From the NCBI GenBank assembly GCA_033664045.1, contig GCA_033664045.1_3674.1: 64,000 nt of DNA; one strand, 5' to 3'. The first letter of the stretch is position 1, and each line of letters opens with the position of its first letter. The stretch is from a phage. The position numbers and the translations under genes were made by a program. Of the stretch, positions 6,216 to 21,334 are shown one piece after another. The notes under the pieces were generated by a model. The model was not told the origin of the DNA and made no database searches. It saw only the letters and a program-made list of their open reading frames with translations.

Positions 6216-7499
6216 TCATTCCAGAACCTCCCAAGTGTCTGGGTTAACATTTCGGACGCAGATACCGACAGGGAATTGGTAGTTGTTGTCTTCTGTCCTT
6301 GCTTGGTATTTGAAGGTGACAAACTTGCCGATCATTTCCTGCATCCTGTCATAGCTACGCTCCTCGTGCGTGCCTTTCATCTTCATTTTAACAACAACAC
6401 CTTCCTTGTCAACACAGATAAGAACACCTTCATCATTCTTATCTTTCTCAACGTCAATAACTTTCACCTCTGCGTCGTTGAACTTTTTCCATTTCAATGC
6501 TTCAGATGTTCGCTGACCATACTCATACTTACCACAGAAGTTACGCATAATGGTACCTTCATATCCTTCGGACATGAATATACCAACAGATTCTTCGCAA
6601 TGATCAACTGTGTACGCAAGCTCTGCGTCAACAACCTTGATATGGTCAAGCATCAGGGTGGTAACGGTATCCTCTGCATCCATAAGATCTTTGCAGCGTC
6701 CAGACTCTGTTTCTGGATCCCACCACACCTTGTCGCTAGGAATATCAAAAATGTGATACTCCAGATCGTAGCTACAGTACCCACCGTAACGCAAATCATC
6801 ACGAACAGGCTCAACATCGACAGGAATATCTACCTTGTTGAAGTTTTTGTACGTTGATAAGCCTGCCTTAATTGCGGCATGACGGCGTTTTTTATCTGCC
6901 TCATAGTCTTTATCGATCTCGGCCTGAATCTCTTCCTGTGTGCGCCACCGTTTAGCAAGAGACACTATTTTCTGCAAAGGAAGACCATGAATGTATAGTT
7001 CCCCATCAAGTTGTTTAATCCCAGTGGTAGAATGGAAAGAACGAAGTTGCTCTAAAAGCTTTCCTTGAATAGGGTAGGACTTATTGCCACGGGAAATAAA
7101 TTTAGGCTCACCATTTTGGAAAACAACAAGCAGACGAAGGCCATCTAACTTACGCAAGATCCAGCAAGGTAATTTAAGTGCCTTGCCACGCTTCAGATAG
7201 TCATGCACCAGCATGGGTAAAAGGTCAACACCCTGCTCGCAATCTTCCATGTTTTCAACATACCCCAGACGGACTTGTTTTTCCCACTTACTGATCGCTT
7301 CCAGCTCGGCCTGTTGCTCAGCTGTAGTCTCGTTGGCACGACCTACGTTCTTAGGTGTGCATACCGTCTCTTTGTACTGCAATTTACCGTCAAGCTTGCC
7401 AAACTCTACGATAACCTTTTCGCCATCTGTAAATACTTTCCATTGCTGGTAACTTCCATCTTTATTCAGTGCGTACAGTGTTGTTTTGATCTGATGCAT
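6216..7499 (-). CDS. ATP-dependent DNA ligase
   Basis: Adenylation motif I ILRKLDGLRLL (KxDGxR) plus EGTIMR and KWKKF motifs; length suits NTase plus OB domain. Confidence 0.85.
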   Translation of the reverse strand: MHQIKTTLYALNKDGSYQQWKVFTDGEKVIVEFGKLDGKLQYKETVCTPKNVGRANETTAEQQAELEAISKWEKQVRLGYVENMEDCEQGVDLLPMLVHDYLKRGKALKLPCWILRKLDGLRLLVVFQNGEPKFISRGNKSYPIQGKLLEQLRSFHSTTGIKQLDGELYIHGLPLQKIVSLAKRWRTQEEIQAEIDKDYEADKKRRHAAIKAGLSTYKNFNKVDIPVDVEPVRDDLRYGGYCSYDLEYHIFDIPSDKVWWDPETESGRCKDLMDAEDTVTTLMLDHIKVVDAELAYTVDHCEESVGIFMSEGYEGTIMRNFCGKYEYGQRTSEALKWKKFNDAEVKVIDVEKDKNDEGVLICVDKEGVVVKMKMKGTHEERSYDRMQEMIGKFVTFKYQARTEDNNYQFPVGICVRNVNPDTWEVLE

Positions 7500-7768: not shown

Positions 7769-8084
7769 TGCAGTCCTCCTTATCTAATAGGTCTTTTATC
7801 GGGTAAACAAGCAGGTGTGGATCGTAATAATTTATAGTTTTATTCTGCCACACTATGAACTTAATTACAACTAAATTTACCACATCTTTATCTCCATGCA
7901 GTCCAACACACAGATTTGTCCATATTTTGTGGTTGAATACTTTGCTGTCGATGTAGATCTTAGTGTCAAACTTCTCCTCTATACTGCCTATGAGTTTAAC
8001 CAACTCTTTCATCTGATCCCCAAACACAGCATCGTTTTCAAGATCTCTGGAGTGCTTGTACATAACTATCTGCCTCACTTGCAT
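7755..8084 (-). CDS. hypothetical protein (109 aa)
   Basis: ORF in operon context only. Confidence 0.35.
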   Translation of the reverse strand: MQVRQIVMYKHSRDLENDAVFGDQMKELVKLIGSIEEKFDTKIYIDSKVFNHKIWTNLCVGLHGDKDVVNLVVIKFIVWQNKTINYYDPHLLVYPIKDLLDKEDCNAVI

Positions 8085-8126
8085 ACTTTCCGCAACAAGT
8101 AAAGCCGGGTAATCCCGGCTATGTTG

Positions 8127-8840
8127 TTAAATATACTCTGTTACATCCTTGAAGCTCGAAGGCTTCATGATCTTACCTTTACTGTCAAGGAATATGATAA
8201 CTTTATTACCGTTGTAGAATTCTTCCTTGGCAACAAAACCTTCATATCGACCATCAAAGCGTCGTTCAAGATCTTTAATCTCCAACTCTATGAGTTGTTC
8301 AGCAGGCATATCTGCACTGGCACCGTGTGAATACCGTAGATGGTTTACCCGTGCAAACTTGCTGTCATTCGATTTGAGAACCTTACGCATCATCCCGCAC
8401 ACATCGCCGCGAAGCTGGAACAGCAAAGCTGTTGACAACTCCGCTAAGCGGTAAGCTGACGCTCTTTGCTTGGATGTGTTTTTCGCAGCGATCAGTGTAT
8501 CATAGAACTCACCGATCTTGAACTTAAGACCTCGTGGATTATCAAACAGGTTTGACCACTTTTCGTGATTGTCATTAACAAGATAAGCTGCATAACTTGT
8601 GACAACGTGAAGATCGCAGGCCTCTTTTAGCAGGTGATCTCCACCATCACCTTTCTCCAGCTCTTCCAAAACCTCATTAAACTCTTCCTCAATGAAGCTA
8701 AGCTGTAATTCGAATGGTGTGTATGATTTTTTCACTTTAGCTGCCACACGGTTCCAGTTTTCCACCCAATTGGCAGACCAAAGGTAGTTTTCAGGCTGAG
8801 ACAGTTTTTCTAGGTTGTCGATCAGTTTAGTATTCAGCAT
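8127..8840 (-). CDS. MazG-like nucleoside triphosphate pyrophosphohydrolase, putative
   Basis: EEEFNEVLEELEKGD...LKEACDLHVV resembles the MazG ExxE...ExxD metal-binding pattern. Confidence 0.4.
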   Translation of the reverse strand: MLNTKLIDNLEKLSQPENYLWSANWVENWNRVAAKVKKSYTPFELQLSFIEEEFNEVLEELEKGDGGDHLLKEACDLHVVTSYAAYLVNDNHEKWSNLFDNPRGLKFKIGEFYDTLIAAKNTSKQRASAYRLAELSTALLFQLRGDVCGMMRKVLKSNDSKFARVNHLRYSHGASADMPAEQLIELEIKDLERRFDGRYEGFVAKEEFYNGNKVIIFLDSKGKIMKPSSFKDVTEYI

Positions 8841-8853
8841 TAAAGGTCTCCTT

Positions 8854-9615
8854 TTAAAGTTCCATAAAGTTTTCTACAGTTTCAATAAATGCTTTATCAG
8901 AGAAAGCGTCAACAGCACCGTTAAACCATACAGGGATCCCGCGATCCTCATATTGATAAAGGTCGCTACGTGAAATGCCACTTCCATCTGCACTCTGCGA
9001 ATCATACTTGTTTACAATCAGCAGTTTTGTGCCTTTACAAGTAGCAGGAAACAATTCCCAGTTAAAATTAATAACTGTGTTAGAACAACCTACCAGGATC
9101 ACCATATCATTGCTGGTAAGAGAAGTCAACAGGTCATACATGTCTGTATACTTAGGAGCAACCTCACCGAAGAACACCACATTGGGCTTAACCCAAGTAT
9201 ACTTGCCTGTATCTACCTCCGTGTATCCGATATTTTTAATTACATCATTACCTTCAGCATCTTCGTAGGTGATTTCAGGCAAATACCCGTGGACATGTAA
9301 AATATCTTCATGTTTTACACCAGCACGCTCCAGCAAATCATCTACATTGGTGGTAAGGTTGATCACACGACCAGACCAGCGGGAATACCACTCAGCGATC
9401 CGAAGATGTGCAATGTTAGGATCAACACTGCCCAGAGCTACACGACGTGCATTGTAAAAGTCATGCACCTTATAGTAGTTCTTGGCAAAGGTGTGGATGT
9501 TGCACACCTCATCGATGCTGAAATTCTCCCACATTGCAGTGCTACCAGATCGGAAAGTGGGAATACCAGATTCAGCGCTCAAACCAGCACCGGAGATAAT
9601 AATCAGTCGTCGCAT
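8854..9615 (-). CDS. sirtuin (Sir2)-like NAD-dependent deacylase/ADP-ribosyltransferase
   Basis: GAGLSAESGIPTFRS, LTTNVDDLLERAG, HVHG, VVFFGE; the usual CxxC Zn-ribbon cysteines appear absent. Confidence 0.75.
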   Translation of the reverse strand: MRRLIIISGAGLSAESGIPTFRSGSTAMWENFSIDEVCNIHTFAKNYYKVHDFYNARRVALGSVDPNIAHLRIAEWYSRWSGRVINLTTNVDDLLERAGVKHEDILHVHGYLPEITYEDAEGNDVIKNIGYTEVDTGKYTWVKPNVVFFGEVAPKYTDMYDLLTSLTSNDMVILVGCSNTVINFNWELFPATCKGTKLLIVNKYDSQSADGSGISRSDLYQYEDRGIPVWFNGAVDAFSDKAFIETVENFMEL

Positions 9616-9623
9616 AAGTGTCC

Positions 9624-9974
9624 TCAGTAGATGTTTTGTTTAATCTCTATTCCAAACTTTTTAAACGAGTCAGCTGCAAGCATGAATTTACGAGCCGCTG
9701 ATGGATTAGAAGTATGCACGAAAATCTTCACGTTGTCAACTACAGGAGGCTTACCAAATACAAATTTTTCCTCCAACATAGATAGGCAATCGTACCCTTC
9801 GAATACCTCTCCAAGGTCGTTGTCCATATGCCACTCAGAAACGCGTCTGTAGAGCTTTTTATTATCGTTAATAAAATCCATAAACTCGGAGGAATTCTTT
9901 AGCCAAATAGCGTCTTGGAGCCCATAATTTGACGGATCTCTCAAGTCATCAAGCCACACAATCAACTTCTTCAT
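9624..9974 (-). CDS. small receiver-like (Rossmannoid) domain protein, function unknown
   Basis: Conserved-position pattern LIVWLDDLRD ... HMDNDLGE ... IFVHTSNP ... K is reminiscent of a CheY-like fold. Confidence 0.3.
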   Translation of the reverse strand: MKKLIVWLDDLRDPSNYGLQDAIWLKNSSEFMDFINDNKKLYRRVSEWHMDNDLGEVFEGYDCLSMLEEKFVFGKPPVVDNVKIFVHTSNPSAARKFMLAADSFKKFGIEIKQNIY

Positions 9975-10906
9975 TGCATATAGTCCCAGTTGTGGAAATA
10001 GTAATCAAGTATCTCACGGCGTTCCTGCTCCAGGAGACAGTTCCACACGTCTTCTGTGTAATTGCTACGAATGAAGTTTACCATGCCGTAAAACTCTTCG
10101 TCAACACGTTTAAATATATCATCACCCCAAATCTTCCAAGCTTTACTCCTCATTACGGCCTTCCGTGCCAGATAGTATGGAGACTTGATCTTCAGCTGCA
10201 GATCATAAGGGTAGTAAGGCTTACGAATCATATACCCTTCACCTCTTGTTTCTGCAGCTAATTCTTTTGCATAGCTGAACGGAATTTCACGCACAGTGTG
10301 AGGACGTTTTGCACCAAGGTATTTGGCAATCCCATCTAAAGCTGCTTCTGGTAGCATTATTCCAGAATCATTATATCTGCAACCTATCAAATATGCTCCA
10401 TGATCTTCCTGAACAATATGCGGATCTGAAGGGTGACAAATTTCAAACATGAATGTCATGTTTTCATTGCCCATAACCTTCTTGATAAGATCTAAATTAC
10501 CACATTGCTCCCGGATGGTTTCCTTTGCAAGGTTACAATATGGAGAATCAAGAGATCCGGTTGTTGAGAACAATAGTTCCCCTTTATGAGATGATACCAC
10601 ACCGAGGAATCCGTTCTTTTTCTCTACCGCCGTCACAAGCTTATTGTCAGGCAGGTTGGTGGAATTTTCTCCCAAGTTAAACACTTTTGTGAAGGGCCAT
10701 GCCACAACATTTCCTTCATTACCGACAACAATGCCTCGGCACTCCAGCAAACGAGGGGACAAATGCCATAAATTGTTGTAAAATACTTTTCTGGCATATT
10801 TATAGATCTTTAACCCGAGATCTGGGTGATATCTGCTGGTTACAAGACCTTTGTCAACTAGGTCGTCTGCATTAAAATACTTCATCATACGTTCCTCATT
10901 TGTCAT
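9971..10906 (-). CDS. ATP-dependent RNA ligase-like nucleotidyltransferase (Rnl2-like)
   Basis: Motif I VEKKNGF (KxNG), motif IV EGYMIRKP (T4 Rnl2 EGYVLKP), motif V LQLKIKSP; a separate DNA ligase exists at 6216-7499. Confidence 0.6.
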   Translation of the reverse strand: MTNEERMMKYFNADDLVDKGLVTSRYHPDLGLKIYKYARKVFYNNLWHLSPRLLECRGIVVGNEGNVVAWPFTKVFNLGENSTNLPDNKLVTAVEKKNGFLGVVSSHKGELLFSTTGSLDSPYCNLAKETIREQCGNLDLIKKVMGNENMTFMFEICHPSDPHIVQEDHGAYLIGCRYNDSGIMLPEAALDGIAKYLGAKRPHTVREIPFSYAKELAAETRGEGYMIRKPYYPYDLQLKIKSPYYLARKAVMRSKAWKIWGDDIFKRVDEEFYGMVNFIRSNYTEDVWNCLLEQERREILDYYFHNWDYMQ

Positions 10907-10949
10907 TTTGTCAGCCTATCCTGCCACACAAATAACCTAGTGTCAACAC

Positions 10950-10978
10950 TTGAAATTAACAAAACAGTTAGGTATACT
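10950..10978 (+). promoter_or_regulatory. sigma70-like promoter for kinase/phosphoesterase operon
   Basis: TTGAAA-17 nt-TATACT, about 28 nt upstream of the GGAGG RBS and ATG at 11007. Confidence 0.5.
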
Positions 10979-11006
10979 ATCATTGAAATTAAAACGGAGG
11001 ATTGCT

Positions 11007-11414
11007 ATGTCTAAAATGCTATATATCGTGCGTGGTCTACCAGGGTCTGGCAAATCAACACTGGCAAATGCGCTATCTTTAGAAGGCCTGTATCCCCATT
11101 TTGAGAACGACATGTTCTGGTACGACGATGACGGCAATTACAACTGGGATGCAAGTAAAGTAACACTTGCAGCAAAATGGTGCAAAGATAACGTAGAAGA
11201 TATGATGCGTATGGGATACGACCGTATCGTGGTAAGTAATACGTTTACAAAAGAAAAATATGTGCAAGAATATATTGACATGGCAATCAGCTATGGGTAT
11301 AGTTATACCGTAATCGTGGTTGAAAACCGCCACGGTAATAAAAGCATTCATGCTTCAGACGAGGTTGTGGATCGTATGGAACGCCAACTTAAAAACTGCA
11401 TCAAACTTAAATGA
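11007..11414 (+). CDS. P-loop polynucleotide 5'-kinase-like protein
   Basis: Walker A LYIVRGLPGSGKST at N-terminus, like T4 Pnk kinase domain (GCPGSGKST); start set at ATG 11007 after GGAGG. Confidence 0.55.
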   Translation: MSKMLYIVRGLPGSGKSTLANALSLEGLYPHFENDMFWYDDDGNYNWDASKVTLAAKWCKDNVEDMMRMGYDRIVVSNTFTKEKYVQEYIDMAISYGYSYTVIVVENRHGNKSIHASDEVVDRMERQLKNCIKLK

Positions 11415-11421
11415 GGAATGT

Positions 11422-11976
11422 ATGAAATACTTTGTAACAAGCGACACACACTTTCTCCACCAGCGGGTCATGGAGTTTGAGTCATGTCAAAAACACAGAT
11501 CTCAGTATGATCACAATCTTGACAGTATGAATGCTGGAATCATCGCCGAGTGGAACTCTGTTGTGTCACCTGCAGACACTGTGTTCCACTTGGGAGATAT
11601 TGCATGCACTAATGATAAGAATATCAACAAATTGCTCCCAGATATTCTAAATATGTTGAACGGACATATTATTCTTGTTCGTGGCAACCATGACACAAGG
11701 ACGACTGTCAGAATTATGAAAGAGTTCTATCATGAGGTTGTAGATTATTACGAGCTTCGCCACAACAAGAATTTGATCTGTATGAGCCATTACCAGTTTG
11801 CAAAGTGGAACAGAAAGCCTCACGGATCAGTCCAACTGTTCGGTCATGCTCACGGAACCACACAACAGTTGTTTGGCAGGCAGTTTGATGTCGGTTGGGA
11901 TGTATGGGGGAGACTCTTACCATTAGAAGAGGCATACCGTATTGCAATGAGTTTTGATATTGACAGCAGGGAGTAA
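11422..11976 (+). CDS. calcineurin-like metallophosphoesterase (candidate end-healing phosphatase)
   Basis: Motifs SDTHF, HLGDIA, VRGNHD, FGHAHG; start set at ATG 11422 after GAGGAA. Confidence 0.6.
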   Translation: MKYFVTSDTHFLHQRVMEFESCQKHRSQYDHNLDSMNAGIIAEWNSVVSPADTVFHLGDIACTNDKNINKLLPDILNMLNGHIILVRGNHDTRTTVRIMKEFYHEVVDYYELRHNKNLICMSHYQFAKWNRKPHGSVQLFGHAHGTTQQLFGRQFDVGWDVWGRLLPLEEAYRIAMSFDIDSRE

Positions 11977-14913: not shown

Positions 14914-14988
14914 GCCCTGTTAGCTTAGTGGATAAAGCAGCGGCCTTCTAAGCCGTTGACACTGGTTCGAGTCCAGTACGGGGTGCCA
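14914..14988 (+). tRNA. tRNA-Arg (anticodon TCT)
   Basis: Hand-folded cloverleaf: acceptor GCCCTGT/ACGGGGT with G-U pairs, anticodon loop CTTCTAA, T-loop TTCGAGT, encoded CCA. Ends approximate. Confidence 0.75.
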
Positions 14989-14992
14989 AATT

Positions 14993-15079
14993 GGGGAGTT
15001 ATCCCGTAGAGGTAGCGGTGTAGACTGTAAATCTATTGTCATTGCGACTCGGGTGGTTCGACTCCACCACTCCCCACCA
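14993..15079 (+). tRNA. tRNA-Tyr (anticodon GTA), class II with long variable arm
   Basis: Acceptor GGGGAGT/ACTCCCC, anticodon loop CTGTAAA, T-arm GGTTCGACTCC, encoded CCA; architecture parallels E. coli tRNA-Tyr. Confidence 0.8.
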
Positions 15080-15193
15080 AATTTATATTTTTAAATGTAT
15101 AAATCATACAGATAATGGCATTGATATTTATCGTCGTTTATACTAGTCACTAACTGCTCGAAAATCAGTGTCATTATCAGTATTGTTTATAAA

Positions 15194-15284
15194 AGAGGGT
15201 AGGGAGCAATGGTGCTCAAGCGGTCTTGAAAACCGTCCCGTTGAGGATGACTCGATGATGGTTCGATTCCATTACCCTCTGCCA
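15194..15284 (+). tRNA. tRNA-Ser (anticodon TGA), class II
   Basis: Acceptor AGAGGGT/ACCCTCT, anticodon stem-loop CGGTCTTGAAAACCG, long extra arm, T-arm GGTTCGATTCC, CCA. Confidence 0.75.
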
Positions 15285-15372
15285 TATTGTTGACCTTGTA
15301 ATTAAGCGAAAGCCGGAAGCAGAACCGGATTATCAAATGTTACAGTCGTCATCGCCGACTAGCAACATGGTC

Positions 15373-15481
15373 AACATACTGAGCTAGGTAAGCCCTTTGG
15401 CAAGGGCGAGGATTTTTAATCCTGAAAATAGACGAGGTAGTCGTTGAATACATAGGTGGTTCGATTCCACCGCCTAGCACC
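15373..15481 (+). tRNA. aberrant tRNA-like gene (about 107 nt), possible pseudo-tRNA
   Basis: Perfect acceptor GCTAGGT/GCCTAGC and T-arm GGTGGTTCGATTCCACC, but anticodon region AGGAT-TTTTA-ATCCT and a roughly 30-nt extra arm; CC but no encoded CCA. Confidence 0.35.
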
Positions 15482-15486
15482 TTTTT

Positions 15487-15562
15487 GCTGATGTAGCACA
15501 ATTGGTAATGCAATTGATTTGTAATCAATAGGTTGCAGGTTCAAGTCCTGCCATCAGCACCA
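15487..15562 (+). tRNA. tRNA-Thr (anticodon TGT)
   Basis: Acceptor GCTGATG/CATCAGC, anticodon stem-loop ATTGA-TTTGTAA-TCAAT, T-arm GCAGGTTCAAGTCCTGC, CCA. Confidence 0.8.
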
Positions 15563-15563
15563 A

Positions 15564-15638
15564 GGCCCTGTAGCTGGAAGGTTCAAGCAAGCGACTCATA
15601 ATCGCCAGACGGTGGTTCAATTCCACCCAGGGCCACCA
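15564..15638 (+). tRNA. tRNA-Met-type (anticodon CAT; elongator Met or Ile2 not resolved)
   Basis: Acceptor GGCCCTG/CAGGGCC fully paired, anticodon loop CTCATAA, T-arm GGTGGTTCAATTCCACC, CCA. Confidence 0.7.
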
Positions 15639-15649
15639 AATAATAAATA

Positions 15650-15726
15650 CTCCGCGTAGCTCAGCTTGGTAGAGCGCCTGATTTGGGATCAGGAGGTCGA
15701 GTGTTCGAATCACTCCGTGGAGACCA
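15650..15726 (+). tRNA. tRNA-Pro (anticodon TGG)
   Basis: Acceptor CTCCGCG/CGTGGAG, canonical D-arm GCTCAGCTTGGTAGAGC, anticodon stem-loop CCTGA-TTTGGGA-TCAGG, T-loop TTCGAAT, CCA. Confidence 0.85.
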
Positions 15727-17255: not shown

Positions 17256-17574
17256 TAATTTGTAGCTCTCGTAAAACCTCCCTAATTGCGGGGAAATCTT
17301 TATTATTGACACCACCAACCTGTTATGGTAACATAATAGAGGCTTCGAAGAGAGATCGAAGGTATGGTAACAGTGTGTTAATTTAGATAATCCGCAGCGA
17401 AGCATCCGATAGGATGAACGTTCAACGACTAGTCGAGAGACGTAGAATCAAGCGATTCGAAACGGGAGGGTAAGCGGTTGTTGTCGCTTATAAGATATAG
17501 TCTGGTCTGCATGGAGACATGCAGCTGCCTGAAAATGGCGGGGCAAGACTAGCGACCTTGCCTGAACATAAACG
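17256..17574 (+). mobile_element. group I self-splicing intron (no ORF)
   Basis: Core elements P AATTGCGGGGAAA (17284-17296), Q AATCCGCAGC (17389-17398), R GTTCAACGACTAGTC (17420-17434), S AAGATATAGTCT (17492-17503); P1 exon GAGGGU (17250-17255) pairs with GCUCUC (17265-17270) including U.G at splice site; ends with G17574. Confidence 0.75.
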
Positions 17575-17891
17575 ACACAATTCGAATGGGAGCAGATAGA
17601 CTATCTGATGTCTCGTCTGCGATCTCAGTCAAAGTATCCATCAAGAATGGTTATCAGCTGTAACCCCGATTCAGAACACATGCTTGCCAAACTGGTTAGA
17701 TGGTGGTTGGACGATGAAGGGTATCCAGATCCGGAGAAATGCGGTAAGAAAAGATATTTTATCCGACGCGACGGTGAATTTATTTGGGGAGACTCTAAGG
17801 AAGAGTTGATAGAGAAATACACCACGGTTAACGGGCTGGGTGTAGAGATCAAGCCAAGACCGTTGTCATTCTCGTTCATAGGCGCAACCAT
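17575..17891 (+). CDS. terminase large subunit, exon 2
   Basis: In-frame continuation TQFEWEQIDYLMSRL...MVISCNPD...SFSFIGATI; 3' boundary uncertain by 1-4 nt. Confidence 0.65.
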
Positions 17892-18888
17892 TAAATAATA
17901 GTGGCTTCGTGCAGAAATGCACGTCGAATAACTTCGTTAATTGCTGGAAAATCCGATTGCTAAACGGACAATCAGCAGCTATAATTACCCTTCCGAACCT
18001 GTAGTAGGGAGATGTTTGAAATGAAAAATTTAGGCTTTTTAGGCTACAATCATTATTGTGCTACATACGATGGCAGAATTTACAGTCTGTATTCTAATAA
18101 ATTCCTCCATCCTAATGTGCAGAAAAAGACTGGCTATGCTATGGTAACTTTGTGCGAGGACGGTAAAAAGTTCCAAGTGCTCGTTCACAGAGTGATTGCT
18201 ATGACTTTTGTTGATAATGATAATCCCAGCGTGAAAACTCAAGTAAATCACCTTGATGGCAATAAGTTGAATAACGCCGCATGGAACCTTGAGTGGACAA
18301 CACCTGAGGAAAACACACATCATGCTCATGAAATGGGACTTAAAAAGGACTATGTCAATAAATACAGGTCCCTAGATGATGCCACTGCTCTTGAAATATG
18401 TAGACTGTTAGAGCAAGGTGCAAGGGTAAAAGACATTTGTGAAATGTTTGGTGTCAATCAACCACTTGTAAGTGGTATAAAGAATGGCTCAGTATACCCA
18501 GATATTTCTAAAGAGTTTAACTTTAGAAAAGTGCCAACCTCTAATAGGATAAGTGAGCACAAGATAATAGGTATCTGCGAGGATCTTAGTGATAGGGTTT
18601 TGTGTGTAAATAAAATAGCTAAGAAGTGGGGCGTAAGTTTTAGTGTTGTTAAAGGAATAAAAGACCGTAAGACTTACACCTATATTTCAAACAATTACGA
18701 TTGGTAATGTAGTTCAACGACTATCCCGAGAGGGAGTAGGGCGCAAGCTTATGGCGCTCGAAAAGCGAAGCACCCTGAGATGGGTGGTGATATAGTCTAC
18801 TCTGCATGGTAACATGCAGCGGCACGTAATGGTGCGGAGGGTGGTGTTGCGACCACCTTTGAATATAAGGATTCGATAATCCTGTCTG
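17892..18888 (+). mobile_element. group I intron carrying an HNH homing endonuclease gene
   Basis: P-like AATTGCTGGAAAA (17939-17951), R GTTCAACGACTATCC (18712-18726), S GATATAGTCT (18789-18798); 3' region near-identical to intron 1 (ATATAGTCT..TCTGCATGG..ACATGCAGC); P1 CCAUU/AGUGG with U.G. Confidence 0.7.
18012..18707 (+). CDS. HNH homing endonuclease (intron-encoded)
   Basis: HNH core QVLVHRVIAMTF...VNHLDGNKLNNAAWNLEWTTPEENTHHA with C-terminal HTH-like repeats; sits between the intron Q and R elements. Confidence 0.8.
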   Translation: MFEMKNLGFLGYNHYCATYDGRIYSLYSNKFLHPNVQKKTGYAMVTLCEDGKKFQVLVHRVIAMTFVDNDNPSVKTQVNHLDGNKLNNAAWNLEWTTPEENTHHAHEMGLKKDYVNKYRSLDDATALEICRLLEQGARVKDICEMFGVNQPLVSGIKNGSVYPDISKEFNFRKVPTSNRISEHKIIGICEDLSDRVLCVNKIAKKWGVSFSVVKGIKDRKTYTYISNNYDW

Positions 18889-19675
18889 TTTGAGAGACAA
18901 CCCAGAATACCTTGCTTTCCTCGAAGGTCTACCAGAGCTGGAAAAAGCTCAGCTTCTCCATGGTAACTGGTTTGCAAAGCCTGAGGGTGCAAACTATTTT
19001 CAAAGATCTTTCCTTCGTGATGCCGATAGAGTACCCCTTGGATCAGTATCTTGCAGGGCATGGGATAAGGCAGGAACCGAGAGAACTTCCGGTAATAAAT
19101 TTCCTGACTTTACCGCCAGTGTTAAGGTAAGTAAAGATAGCGACGGATTTTATTACCTGTCAGGAGATTATTGTCCTGAAAACGTAGATGACGGGAGGTA
19201 TTCCACAGGTCTGGAAGGCAAGTTCTGTAAAAAGGCTGGTGAACGAGATGTGATCATCAGGAAACAGGCGCAGTTTGATGGTGATGATTGTATAATCGTA
19301 TTCTCTGTGGACCCCGGTCAGGCAGGTAAGAGTGAGTTCTTAACCTCATCCAGATCCTTGCTCGCAGAAGGGTTCAGGGTTGAAGAAGACCCAATGCCTT
19401 CCAACAAGTCTAAACTGACAAGGTTCTCACCTTTTGCCAATCTTGCCCAACAAGGGATGGTGAGGATTGTAAAATCCAGTTTCCATCCTGATACTCTGGA
19501 AGCATTTCTGACCGAACTTGAAAAATTCAACGGGGAAAGATCAACATTTAACAGAAAAGACGACTGGGCTGACTGTGTAGCTTCTGCAATTAATTTCCTG
19601 GAGAAAGAGGAGGTAGCACTTCCTTGTGTGATTCCATCAATCTCATCACCTTCTATGTTCAAGCGTTTTATCTAA
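18889..19675 (+). CDS. terminase large subunit, exon 3 (nuclease domain)
   Basis: (L)RDNPEYLAFLEGLPELEKAQLLHGNW then acidic nuclease motifs RAWDKAG, VDPGQAGKSEF, DDWADC; frame open only from 18869. Confidence 0.75.
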
Positions 19676-19725
19676 GTGTTGCCAATCTTAATTAGATGTG
19701 GTAGAATAGATTAATCGGAGATACT

Positions 19726-19752
19726 AGCCCTCTAACACGAGGGCTATTTTGT
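19726..19752 (+). terminator. terminator-like hairpin after terminase
   Basis: AGCCCTC-taacac-GAGGGCT followed by ATTTTGTT. Confidence 0.5.
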
Positions 19753-19777
19753 TATACTGTTTTGAGGGGTAAAGCTT

Positions 19778-21334
19778 GTGTCCAAAAAGAACCGCAGGAA
19801 ACACAACGCCACAGCCAAAACTGTGAATAAATCTGGGAACGCAGGCGCACCAACTCATAATGTTCGTATGAGTGAGATCGGTTCTGGCGCACTTTCCCAA
19901 ATTATGGCAGAATCGCAATCTATGATGGTTGAGGAATTGCGTTGGCCTCAGCTGATTGCCACAGTGGAGACTATGAAATGTGATTCCACAGTTGCTACTG
20001 CCTTAGATACAAAATATGTTTTCATCACGAAAGCATTCAATGATTTTAAGATCCTTTATAATGTTAAAAGTGAAGACTCTAAGAAAGCTGCCGAGCTTAT
20101 AGAGTATTCTTTGCGTAATTTGGCAAACCAACAAACTCTTCGGGATATTGCAAGAAGCGCAGCTACCTTTAACGAGTATGGTTTTTCACTGTTTGAGAAA
20201 GTATACCGCAGAGAAAAAGAAGGTAAATATGCCGGGATGCTCCTTATCGATAAAATTGCATTCCGACCTCAGGCCAGCCTGTCCAGATCAGAGCCGTTTG
20301 TTTTTGATAAGAATAGCAGAACACTGACAGGTATTTATCAGTCACCTAATGCATTTCTAAACACTCAGAATGCACGCTGGGCTGGACCTCTTGCTGTAAT
20401 GCCTTCAAAAGGCTTTAATGAGCCTGAAATTTTCATCCCTGCTAAAAAGCTTATGCTCATGACCCTGTCAGGAACAGAATCTAACCCTGCAGGTGTGTCA
20501 CCTATGATAGGTTGCTACAGATCTTTCCGTGAGAAAGTTCTGATTGAAAACCTTGAGGTTGTTGGCTGTTCCAAAGACCTTGGTGGCGTGCTTGAGCTGA
20601 AAATTCCTTCCAATATTTTGAACAAGGCCAGCATTGACCCGAATTCAATGGAAGGGAGAATGGTTGCAGACCTTATGCTTGACGCAGCAAACGCCCATAG
20701 TGGTGAGCAAAGTTTCTTTATACTTCCGTCTGATAGAGATAAGTCTGGTAAAGAGCTTTACTCCATGACCCTGAAGGGGGTTGACGGTATGGGTAAGCAG
20801 TATTCCACTAAAGATTTGATTGATGCCCGTAAGAAGGCGATTCTTGACCGTTTCGGTGCTGGCTTTATTAACCTCGGTAACGATAACGTTGGATCCTTCT
20901 CTCTGTCTGAGTCAAAACAGTCTATCCATGGTCATTTTGTTCAGCGTGATATAGATATTATCACTGAGGCCTTCAATAAAGATCTTATTCCACAGCTTCT
21001 GGCATTGAATGGTATCATCCTTGAAGATGATGATATGCCTAAACTGAAACCTGGTCTGATTGAAGAAGTGGACATGGAGAGCTTCTCCAAGTTTGTCCAG
21101 AGGATCGGTGCTGTAGGTTACTTGCCAAAAACTCCTGCAGTAATTAATAAGATTCTTGAAGTAGGCGGGTTTGATGAAAGATTTGACGAGGACATGGATC
21201 AGGAAGAGCTGATGAAGCTCTTGGGCCAAGACATCAGTAGGGCTGGTGATGGAATGGCTGCAGGATCTACTGGCAACGGCACTTCTAAGATATCATCAAC
21301 CAGAGATAATTCCATATCCAACATGGAAAATTAA
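19778..21334 (+). CDS. portal protein, putative
   Basis: 518-aa ORF (GTG start, RBS GAGGGG) immediately after terminase; size and position typical of portal. Confidence 0.6.
   Translation: MSKKNRRKHNATAKTVNKSGNAGAPTHNVRMSEIGSGALSQIMAESQSMMVEELRWPQLIATVETMKCDSTVATALDTKYVFITKAFNDFKILYNVKSEDSKKAAELIEYSLRNLANQQTLRDIARSAATFNEYGFSLFEKVYRREKEGKYAGMLLIDKIAFRPQASLSRSEPFVFDKNSRTLTGIYQSPNAFLNTQNARWAGPLAVMPSKGFNEPEIFIPAKKLMLMTLSGTESNPAGVSPMIGCYRSFREKVLIENLEVVGCSKDLGGVLELKIPSNILNKASIDPNSMEGRMVADLMLDAANAHSGEQSFFILPSDRDKSGKELYSMTLKGVDGMGKQYSTKDLIDARKKAILDRFGAGFINLGNDNVGSFSLSESKQSIHGHFVQRDIDIITEAFNKDLIPQLLALNGIILEDDDMPKLKPGLIEEVDMESFSKFVQRIGAVGYLPKTPAVINKILEVGGFDERFDEDMDQEELMKLLGQDISRAGDGMAAGSTGNGTSKISSTRDNSISNMEN

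Follow-up and report, generated by a model that had tools for sequence, protein, structure and literature searches.

What does a sirtuin contribute to a bacteriophage, and why should its gene stand beside one for an RNA ligase? Sirtuins are known as protein deacylases, as ADP-ribosyltransferases, and as NADases in bacterial immunity. The question is raised by a Sir2-family gene at positions 8854-9615 of a 64,000-nucleotide stretch of phage DNA (contig GCA_033664045.1_3674.1 of GenBank assembly GCA_033664045.1), here called the window. A sequence-only reading of this stretch had described the product as a sirtuin with a canonical pocket for nicotinamide adenine dinucleotide (NAD+) but apparently no zinc ribbon, and had named deacylation of host targets, consumption or sensing of NAD+, and interference with NAD-based defence as conceivable roles. 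In this study, we mainly consider the catalytic core of the protein, the fate of its zinc site, its relationship to known sirtuins and the genes that accompany it in phage genomes. The protein belongs to a zinc-less phage clade, and the interpretation that we favour, though only tentatively, is that it serves as the NAD+-consuming step of phage tRNA/RNA repair.

A phage sirtuin with an intact catalytic core

An open reading frame (ORF) that starts with ATG fills positions 8854-9615 exactly on the minus strand and encodes 253 residues, and a GAGGA Shine-Dalgarno sequence lies 5 nucleotides 5′ of the start codon and shares nucleotides with the stop codon of the cREC gene before it. Profile searches bear out the assignment to the sirtuins made from the letters alone: Pfam PF02146 matches at 98.9 bits (gathering cut-off 24; E 4.5e-28) along positions 1-178 of its 180-position profile, phrog_2162, named 'Sir2 (NAD-dependent deacetylase)', matches with an E value of 1.5e-108, and all of the motifs quoted in that reading are present, namely GAGLSAESGIPTFR at residues 9-22, TTNVDDL at 88-94, HG at 109-110, and VVFFGE at 146-151. 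SIR2 is the only domain that the Pfam scan finds in the 253 residues, with no match to KptA/Tpt1 (PTS_2-RNA, of the ADP-ribosyltransferase fold).

In an alignment of 57 diverse family members, which are 49-93% identical to the protein, 44 positions are invariant. They include G9-A10-G11-x-S13, F21-R22, N90, D92 and H109-G110, and likewise F149-E151, G176-x-S178 and N202. All of these line up with functional residues of CobB and of Sir2Tm (the sequence of the latter verified against PDB 1yc5). The sirtuin-family alignment that the sequence-only reading had proposed as a check on the catalytic His and Asn therefore turned out in its favour, with His109 and Asn90 both present and aligned to their CobB and Sir2Tm counterparts. 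Its description of the NAD pocket as canonical stands for GAGxS, F-R, N90, D92 and H109, all of which are intact, but not for TTNVDDL, which is not fully canonical in that Thr89 replaces a Gln. Together, the intact NAD-pocket and catalytic residues form a signature that predicts an active enzyme. The ratio of nonsynonymous to synonymous substitution rates (dN/dS) is 0.09 in two comparisons, one with a 99%-identical and one with a 90%-identical homologue, and strong purifying selection acts on the gene. The AlphaFold2 model has a mean predicted local distance difference test score (pLDDT) of 88.9 and a predicted template modelling score of 0.88; relative to CobB and SIRT5, it contains an insertion of about 30 residues after the last Rossmann Asn (residues about 203-232), part of which has low pLDDT. 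The protein is acidic, with an isoelectric point (pI) of 4.9 and a family median of 5.1.

Loss of the zinc site and the Gln-to-Thr change

The CxxC...CxxC cysteines of classical sirtuins, already noted as not seen in the sequence-only reading, are indeed absent. The only cysteines of the protein are C38, C177 and C193, none of them between His109 and Pro144, a stretch in which Escherichia coli CobB and Thermotoga Sir2Tm have four each. Among 119 full-length close homologues, the same stretch holds no cysteine in 69, one in 48, two in 2, and four in none. By sequence, then, the protein lacks the classical Cys4 zinc ribbon of sirtuin classes I-IV and U. The equivalent segment is nevertheless of normal length (36 residues vs 39-42), and AlphaFold2 places strands in it at residues 110-118, 124-128 and 142-146, with every 10-residue block from 101 to 150 at a pLDDT of 93-97. 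Since this small module is modelled with such high confidence, the beta structure is predicted to persist, with only the metal ligands gone.

At E<=1e-3, the extended clade comprises 5,503 representatives. Sequences with and without the zinc cysteines both occur among 150 remoter representatives that come from a library in which sequences had been clustered at 50% identity: the full CxxC...CPxC pattern occurs in 87, and 47 have at most one cysteine. A central 'IGY' motif is common to the zinc-bearing and the cysteine-less groups. The first-knuckle cysteines of the zinc-bearing relatives align to Y117 and N123 of the protein, and their second knuckle, CPxC, is replaced or deleted. The near-universal Gln of the TQNID motif corresponds to Thr89, a threonine that is invariant in the close family; among the distant relatives, this position is Gln in 74 of the 87 zinc-bearing sequences and Thr in 35 of the 47 cysteine-less ones. 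As far as these alignments can tell, the Gln-to-Thr change tracks zinc loss among the relatives.

A separate observation concerns Cys38 (codon 9502-9504), which is invariant in the close family and is found in 72 of the 87 zinc-bearing and 39 of the 47 cysteine-less distant relatives. It aligns to Ala76 of CobB (Ala86 of SIRT5), which we take to be a position lining the acyl pocket, and Cys38 would then be a clade-specific pocket residue.

Relationship to CobB, SIRT5 and defence-associated Sir2 proteins

Among proteins of solved structure, CobB (1s5p) is the best sequence relative (E 3e-21), with SIRT5 also among the top matches, and Foldseek likewise places CobB first (TM 0.82-0.84, about 27% identity), alongside SIRT5 and Sir2-Af1. 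The motifs GAGxS, FR, FYNARR, PN-AH, N-x-D, HG and FGE are common to CobB/SIRT5 and the phage protein. Its FYNARR is identical to that of CobB, and Y54 and R57, which make up the Y-x-x-R motif, are invariant in the 57-sequence alignment. In SIRT5 and CobB, this class III motif holds succinyl- or malonyl-lysine by its carboxylate. Alignment to CobB further indicates that the acyl-lysine tunnel is mostly conserved (CobB A76, Y92, R95, I131, V187, F190 and V219 correspond to C38, Y54, R57, V91, V146, F149 and V181, respectively). Unlike CobB and SIRT5, the phage protein has no zinc cysteines, a Thr in place of the TQNID Gln, and V-I-N (I182-N183) in place of the V-Y-P (Y220-P221) with which CobB clamps its peptide. 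Judged by the Y-x-x-R motif and overall similarity, the class III (CobB/SIRT5-like) sirtuins appear to be the closest group, from which we propose that the phage-borne clade descends.

Orthology to CobB itself was considered and rejected. Against the NF040867 and PRK00481 subfamily models of NCBIfam, with their curated equivalog/subfamily cut-offs, the scores fall far below what is required (123.1 vs 243; 104 vs 320; 93.5 vs 318), and the protein is therefore not a CobB orthologue.

Kinship with the NAD-depleting Sir2 effectors of bacterial defence, which the sequence-only reading had brought into play, fared no better. The best match in a PADLOC scan was PDC-S65 (E 0.011, 13 bits), which is not significant, so a link to defence effectors is not supported by homology. 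The defence Sir2 NADases (ThsA, DSR1/2, Sir2-HerA and SPARSA) share with the phage protein the Sir2 Rossmann core and the use of NAD+, and to our knowledge they also do without a classical zinc ribbon. Unlike them, it is a small, stand-alone, single-domain protein of 253 residues, encoded by a phage and free of sensor or effector partner domains, and its nearest relatives, CobB and SIRT5, are sirtuins of the deacylase type.

The operon and the recurring linkage to RNA-end-processing genes

On the minus strand of the window, the genes for the RNA ligase, cREC (cyclic-phosphate-processing receiver-like), Sir2 and a MazG-like protein follow one another in this order and are tightly packed (Table 1): the ligase and cREC genes overlap by 4 nucleotides, the cREC stop codon lies 8 nucleotides before the Sir2 ATG, and the MazG-like gene begins 13 nucleotides past the Sir2 stop. 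A hairpin with a perfect 7-bp stem (AGCCGGG-ATTA-CCCGGCT), terminator-like on both strands, follows at 8103-8120 and, as a sequence pattern, may close the transcription unit that runs from the ligase gene to the MazG-like gene; farther downstream are two small ORFs and the gene for an ATP-dependent DNA ligase. No Macro gene partner was found beside Sir2 in either the window or JES2013, and tblastn searches of the window with NAMPT, PRPP synthetase, NADAR, RlaP and HAD_SAK2 from related loci gave no matches. Neither host deacylation nor NAD sensing or consumption nor an anti-defence role, the functions put forward in the sequence-only reading, is specifically favoured by this gene context.

The adjacency to the RNA ligase, by comparison, which that reading had called suggestive, does prove meaningful, as linkage to RNA-end genes recurs in Vequintavirus, Mydovirus, T5-like phages and several more distant relatives. 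In Proteus phage Mydo, a phosphoesterase gene is followed at some remove by genes for the RNA ligase, a cREC-sized protein, an ATPase, a small ORF, Sir2 and a DNA ligase, and then, farther on, by MazG; the order differs from that in the window, but the partners are the same, and the DNA ligase gene directly adjoins Sir2. In T5, there is no ligase nearby, and the gene after Sir2 encodes a HAD_SAK2 phosphatase ('Swiss-army-knife RNA repair'; PF18143, E 4e-20). Counted over 62 IMG/VR loci, HAD_SAK2 lies 28-442 bp downstream of Sir2 on the same strand in 28, the T5-like ones; another 11-13 have Rnl1, the kinase, Metallophos and MazG within 3 kb on the same strand; and about 16 have none of these partners. 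Directly after the Sir2 and HAD_SAK2 genes of T5, we also observed two tandem paralogous DUF7415 proteins (phrog_2502; 6661-7479). DUF7415 accompanies the sirtuin in 31 of the 62 viral loci and is a candidate sirtuin partner.

The distant zinc-less relatives show further arrangements, including RlaP-SIR2-NADAR in a T4-like phage, SIR2 with a NadR-like gene, SIR2-PTH2, and, on a bacterial chromosome, SIR2-Metallophos. No acetyltransferase, acetyl-CoA synthetase or known CobB-target gene was found beside the zinc-less relatives examined; the lone acetyltransferase neighbour, a weak GNAT match, belongs to a zinc-bearing relative. That relative stands on a short metagenomic contig between a Clp1-like polynucleotide-kinase P-loop protein and the GNAT match, another adjacency of a sirtuin and an RNA kinase, outside the zinc-less clade. 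Other zinc-bearing contexts comprise Ank-SIR2-DAGK and a lipoate-ligase neighbourhood, probably read in another genetic code; being short contigs or cellular loci, the contexts of the zinc-bearing relatives are uninformative. Across all of these loci, the recurring partners of the sirtuin are enzymes of RNA-end healing, tRNA metabolism or ADP-ribose/NAD processing.

A possible NAD+-consuming step of RNA repair

How might a sirtuin fit among such partners? In the scheme that we tentatively favour, an active, zinc-independent sirtuin would be made from one operon together with the Rnl1-like ligase, cREC and the MazG-like pyrophosphatase, and the pathway would counter host ribonucleases that leave 2′,3′-cyclic phosphate ends on RNA, notably tRNA. 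The kinase would phosphorylate the 5′-OH of the broken RNA, cREC and/or the metallophosphoesterase would open the 2′,3′-cyclic phosphate, and the Rnl1-like ligase would seal the break. The sirtuin would provide the NAD+-consuming step of this healing and sealing, the by-product of which could be cleared by cREC, the phosphoesterases and the MazG-like enzyme. Sirtuin, cREC, ligase and kinase would thus amount to a phage version of healing and sealing of the fungal/plant tRNA-splicing type. We infer both the substrate and every enzymatic step of this proposed pathway.

A more specific and more doubtful proposal is that the zinc-less sirtuin is an RNA 2′-phosphotransferase, a non-homologous replacement of Tpt1/KptA that acts on nucleic acid. 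In sirtuin catalysis, the acyl oxygen attacks C1′, and the His-activated 2′-OH then forms a 1′,2′-cyclic intermediate. In the Tpt1 reaction, as set out in a passage of PMC11417386, a phosphate oxygen attacks C1″ of NAD and O2″ then attacks to yield a 1″,2″-cyclic product. The chemistry is plausible because these two Tpt1 steps mirror the two sirtuin steps and because class III sirtuins already possess an anion-binding Y-x-x-R pocket. As a proposed functional analogue, KptA/Tpt1 is described in the published passages concerned as consuming NAD+, releasing nicotinamide and forming a 1″,2″-cyclic ADP-ribose product, and as operating with an RNA ligase, a kinase and a cyclic phosphodiesterase; its fold is that of the ADP-ribosyltransferases and is unrelated to the sirtuin fold. 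KptA homologues occur in 98 phage records, mostly of jumbo phages of 250-300 kb, and relatives of the sirtuin in 988, mostly of Escherichia, Salmonella and Klebsiella phages of 100-150 kb; compared as organism and genome-size classes, these figures fit a largely complementary distribution of the two proteins in phages.

Several observations weigh against a role in RNA repair. Repair of the T4 Pnkp/Rnl1 type leaves no 2′-phosphate, and the scheme therefore depends on a putative 2′-phosphate-forming activity of cREC. Whereas E. coli KptA is basic (pI 9.4), the phage protein, at pI 4.9, is acidic, which is not as expected of an RNA-binding enzyme, and its largely intact acyl-lysine tunnel would, as aligned, fit a protein deacylase equally well. 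Sir2 is often, but not always, linked to RNA-end-processing genes. Since just two or three phage lineages account for many of the linked loci, the counts given above are not independent; in Phapecoctavirus ESCO5, no recognisable RNA-repair or NAD genes surround Sir2; and two 145-kb phage contigs carry a cluster of cREC, metallophosphoesterase, Rnl1 and AAA_33 kinase genes with no Sir2 in it. In one of these contigs, the cREC-Rnl1-kinase cluster is joined by genes for a DNA ligase and a MazG-like (PRA-PH) protein. A related contig of 152 kb carries genes for cREC, a DNA ligase and a MazG-like protein, with no sirtuin in the cluster and, in the stretch read, no RNA ligase or kinase. Moreover, our literature searches found no experimental study of phage sirtuins, T5 Sir2, cREC or HAD_SAK. 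As an observation in its own right, the cREC cluster stands back-to-back with NAMPT-like (NAPRTase) and PRPP-synthetase genes in all three of the 145-152 kb contigs, so that RNA repair and NAD salvage are neighbours there.

The main rival to RNA repair is lysine deacylation of proteins by a conventional NAD+-dependent enzyme of the kind represented by CobB and SIRT5, perhaps a desuccinylase, which would remodel host or phage proteins, for example by reactivating acetyl-CoA synthetase or the adjacent lysine-dependent ligases. We regard this as possible, though on balance rather unlikely. In its favour, the protein matches CobB and SIRT5 best in both sequence and fold, it retains Y-x-x-R and most positions of the acyl tunnel along with an unaltered catalytic His, Asn and Asp, and Skliros et al. 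(2016; PMC5107563) proposed such an activity for the related Vibrio phage proteins. However, NCBIfam scores for CobB and deacylase models are far under their cut-offs, the V-Y-P clamp has become V-I-N and the TQNID Gln has become Thr, and the context offers no acetyltransferase or known CobB-target partner, RNA-end or ADP-ribose-processing partners recurring instead. A compromise between deacylation and RNA repair would be an RNA-linked amine deacylase, removing acyl groups from the N-acetyl-aminoacyl-tRNA made by GNAT toxins or from acetylated tRNA bases, which would still be tRNA repair, though directed at something other than a 2′-phosphate. The retained acyl-binding pocket and the tRNA/RNA-centred context, in which one relative adjoins a PTH2 peptidyl-tRNA hydrolase and a phage tRNA cluster lies near the operon, would suit it; the idea is purely inferential, though, with no precedent in the literature searched, and an acidic protein with no obvious RNA-binding surface makes it improbable.

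Scarcely more credible is an NAD+-directed counter-defence or metabolic factor, whether an NADase, a degrader or sponge of an immune signal, or an enzyme that ADP-ribosylates a host defence protein. The sirtuin fold is capable of both NADase and ADP-ribosyltransferase activity, according to the passages on phage sirtuins in PMC9503650, and some relatives adjoin a NadR-like NAD-salvage gene or NADAR, but no PADLOC defence Sir2 model matches significantly, a phage needs NAD+ and would gain nothing obvious from depleting it, and neither a Macro partner nor an NAD-salvage gene was found in the window. Finally, the loss of the zinc ligands and the substitution of the canonical Gln could be the marks of a decaying or non-catalytic remnant, destabilised by the absence of zinc. 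This reading is already disfavoured and very improbable, given a dN/dS of 0.09, the 44 invariant positions among 57 sequences, a zinc-less module modelled with high confidence and the presence of the gene in 988 phage records. Set against these alternatives, the assignment to an NAD+-consuming step of RNA repair is the one that we retain, tentatively as before.

Published work on phage sirtuins

Both halves of this picture have already been published, the zinc-less state in 2016 and the RNA-repair linkage in 2022, and the gene itself has already been annotated. Skliros et al. (Front Microbiol 7:1807, 2016; PMC5107563) described the Sir2/CobB proteins of Vibrio phages phiSt2, phiGrn1 and KVP40 as keeping the catalytic His while lacking a zinc ligand in the small 'finger' domain, so the absence of zinc, which the sequence-only reading had offered as a fresh observation, was on record for related phage sirtuins. 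They listed the homologues of T5, SPC35 and GAP32 and read the proteins as protein deacetylases that activate Acs. By tblastn, the Vibrio phage proteins are 41-50% identical to the one studied here; they come from a different lineage, schizoT4-like phages of about 245 kb, and keep I-N-P where it has V-I-N.

The neighbourhood was described, exactly as found here, by Iyer, Burroughs, Anantharaman and Aravind (Viruses 14:1977, 2022; PMC9503650), whose section 3.7.3 sets out a type 2 neighbourhood, 'Escherichia phage V5 / Proteus phage Mydo', with the HAD type of T5-like phages (SP15) as another. In that section the sirtuin is proposed, as a computational prediction, to be KptA-like and to remove 2′-phosphates from RNA. 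The clade delineated there includes this very gene, in the phage group to which the window belongs, accompanied by a T4-like RNA ligase, cREC, a nucleotide kinase, a MazG-family protein and a calcineurin-like phosphoesterase; as in the window, no Macro gene adjoins it, and nothing material differs in the passages concerned. The linkage that characterises this clade of phage RNA-repair sirtuins (ligase, cREC, kinase, MazG and phosphoesterase, with no Macro gene) is found in full in the window. The passages of that paper on phage sirtuins contain no discussion of the loss of the zinc site or of the Gln-to-Thr change. The rV5 genome paper (PMC3606486) makes no mention of Sir2, NAD or RNA ligase, the NARP3 paper (PMC13464706) concerns the host Sir2-HerA rather than this protein, and a review of bacterial acetylation (PMC8556138) has nothing on zinc-less sirtuins.

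Distribution in phages and other features of the window

Over 3 kb around the Sir2 gene, the window, itself a Vequintavirus sequence, is 95-97% identical in DNA sequence to rV5-like E. coli phages (Vequintavirus), with 121 matching records, among them JES2013, O157 typing phage 4, phiWec191 and slur16; such records already label the gene 'Sir2-like protein' or 'cobB'. With the protein as query, tblastn finds relatives in 988 phage records, the carriers including Vequintavirus, Mydovirus, T5-like Demerecviridae, Phapecoctavirus and Erwinia phage KEY. The T5 homologue is the gene 'cobb' (AAX12033), and more distant homologues occur in KVP40-like Vibrio phages and in jumbo phages such as GAP32. 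A set of 18-25 unannotated 'Campylobacter phage' records (GenBank MG0656xx, host C. jejuni) match positions 8000-11000 of the window at 96-97% DNA identity, with Sir2 proteins up to 99.6% identical to the one encoded there, which suggests mislabelled hosts or contaminating coliphages.

The features of the window that bear on the cassette are collected in Table 1. In the tRNA cluster, ARAGORN also reports a 99-nucleotide 'tRNA-???' with a four-base anticodon (atcc) at 15383-15481 on the plus strand, between tRNA-Ser and tRNA-Thr. It may be a tRNA resembling frameshift suppressors, one that contains an intron, or a false call. In the homologous region downstream of this cluster in JES2013 (17539-19969), the large terminase is annotated as two pieces with an endonuclease VII gene between them, suggesting that it is split or interrupted by an intron or intein.

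Table 1. Sir2 gene, neighbouring genes and related features of the window
Feature	Position	Strand	Evidence
Sir2-family (sirtuin) gene, zinc-less phage-clade member	8854-9615	-	ORF of 253 residues, Pfam SIR2, phrog_2162, AlphaFold2 model, Foldseek, dN/dS
Catalytic His109 codon	9289-9291	-	Aligned to the catalytic His of CobB and Sir2Tm; invariant in 57 and in 150 relatives
Small beta module replacing the sirtuin zinc ribbon, residues 110-146, no Cys (predicted)	9178-9288	-	Translation, Cys count, AlphaFold2 model
Rnl1-like (T4 RnlA family) RNA ligase, 311 residues, first operon gene	9971-10906	-	Pfam RNA_lig_T4_1 E 6.6e-15; phrog_562 E 2.6e-66
cREC (cyclic-phosphate-processing receiver-like), 116 residues, directly upstream of Sir2	9624-9974	-	PF20274 E 1.3e-14; phrog_1479
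MazG-like nucleotide pyrophosphohydrolase, 237 residues	8127-8840	-	phrog_671 E 5.4e-22; 'nucleotide pyrophosphohydrolase' in JES2013
P-loop nucleotide/polynucleotide-kinase-like protein, 134 residues, divergent	11010-11414	+	AAA_33 E 4.3e-10; phrog_2071; phrog_505 'polynucleotide kinase' E 6.9e-10
Calcineurin-like metallophosphoesterase, 184 residues, divergent	11422-11976	+	Metallophos E 3.5e-7; phrog_547 E 9.2e-52
ATP-dependent DNA ligase, farther downstream	6216-7499	-	Pfam DNA_ligase_A_M and OB_2; phrog_114
G+C-rich hairpin right after the MazG-like gene	8103-8120	-	Consensus terminator scan, pattern match only
Phage tRNA cluster, 7 genes, about 4 kb from the repair cassette	14914-15726	+	ARAGORN; context only

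Implications

The window adds no information beyond the rV5-like and T5-like genomes, and the valuable question is a biochemical one. The protein offers a naturally occurring case of a sirtuin with a small domain that apparently folds in the absence of zinc, and a widespread phage clade possibly engaged in RNA repair would extend the sirtuin fold to a new class of substrate. If the proposed 2′-phosphotransferase activity were true, it would add to the sirtuin superfamily a kind of catalysis new to it and would identify the substrate of the cREC domain, and a role in RNA repair, if true, would explain how many coliphages cope with host defences that cut tRNA.

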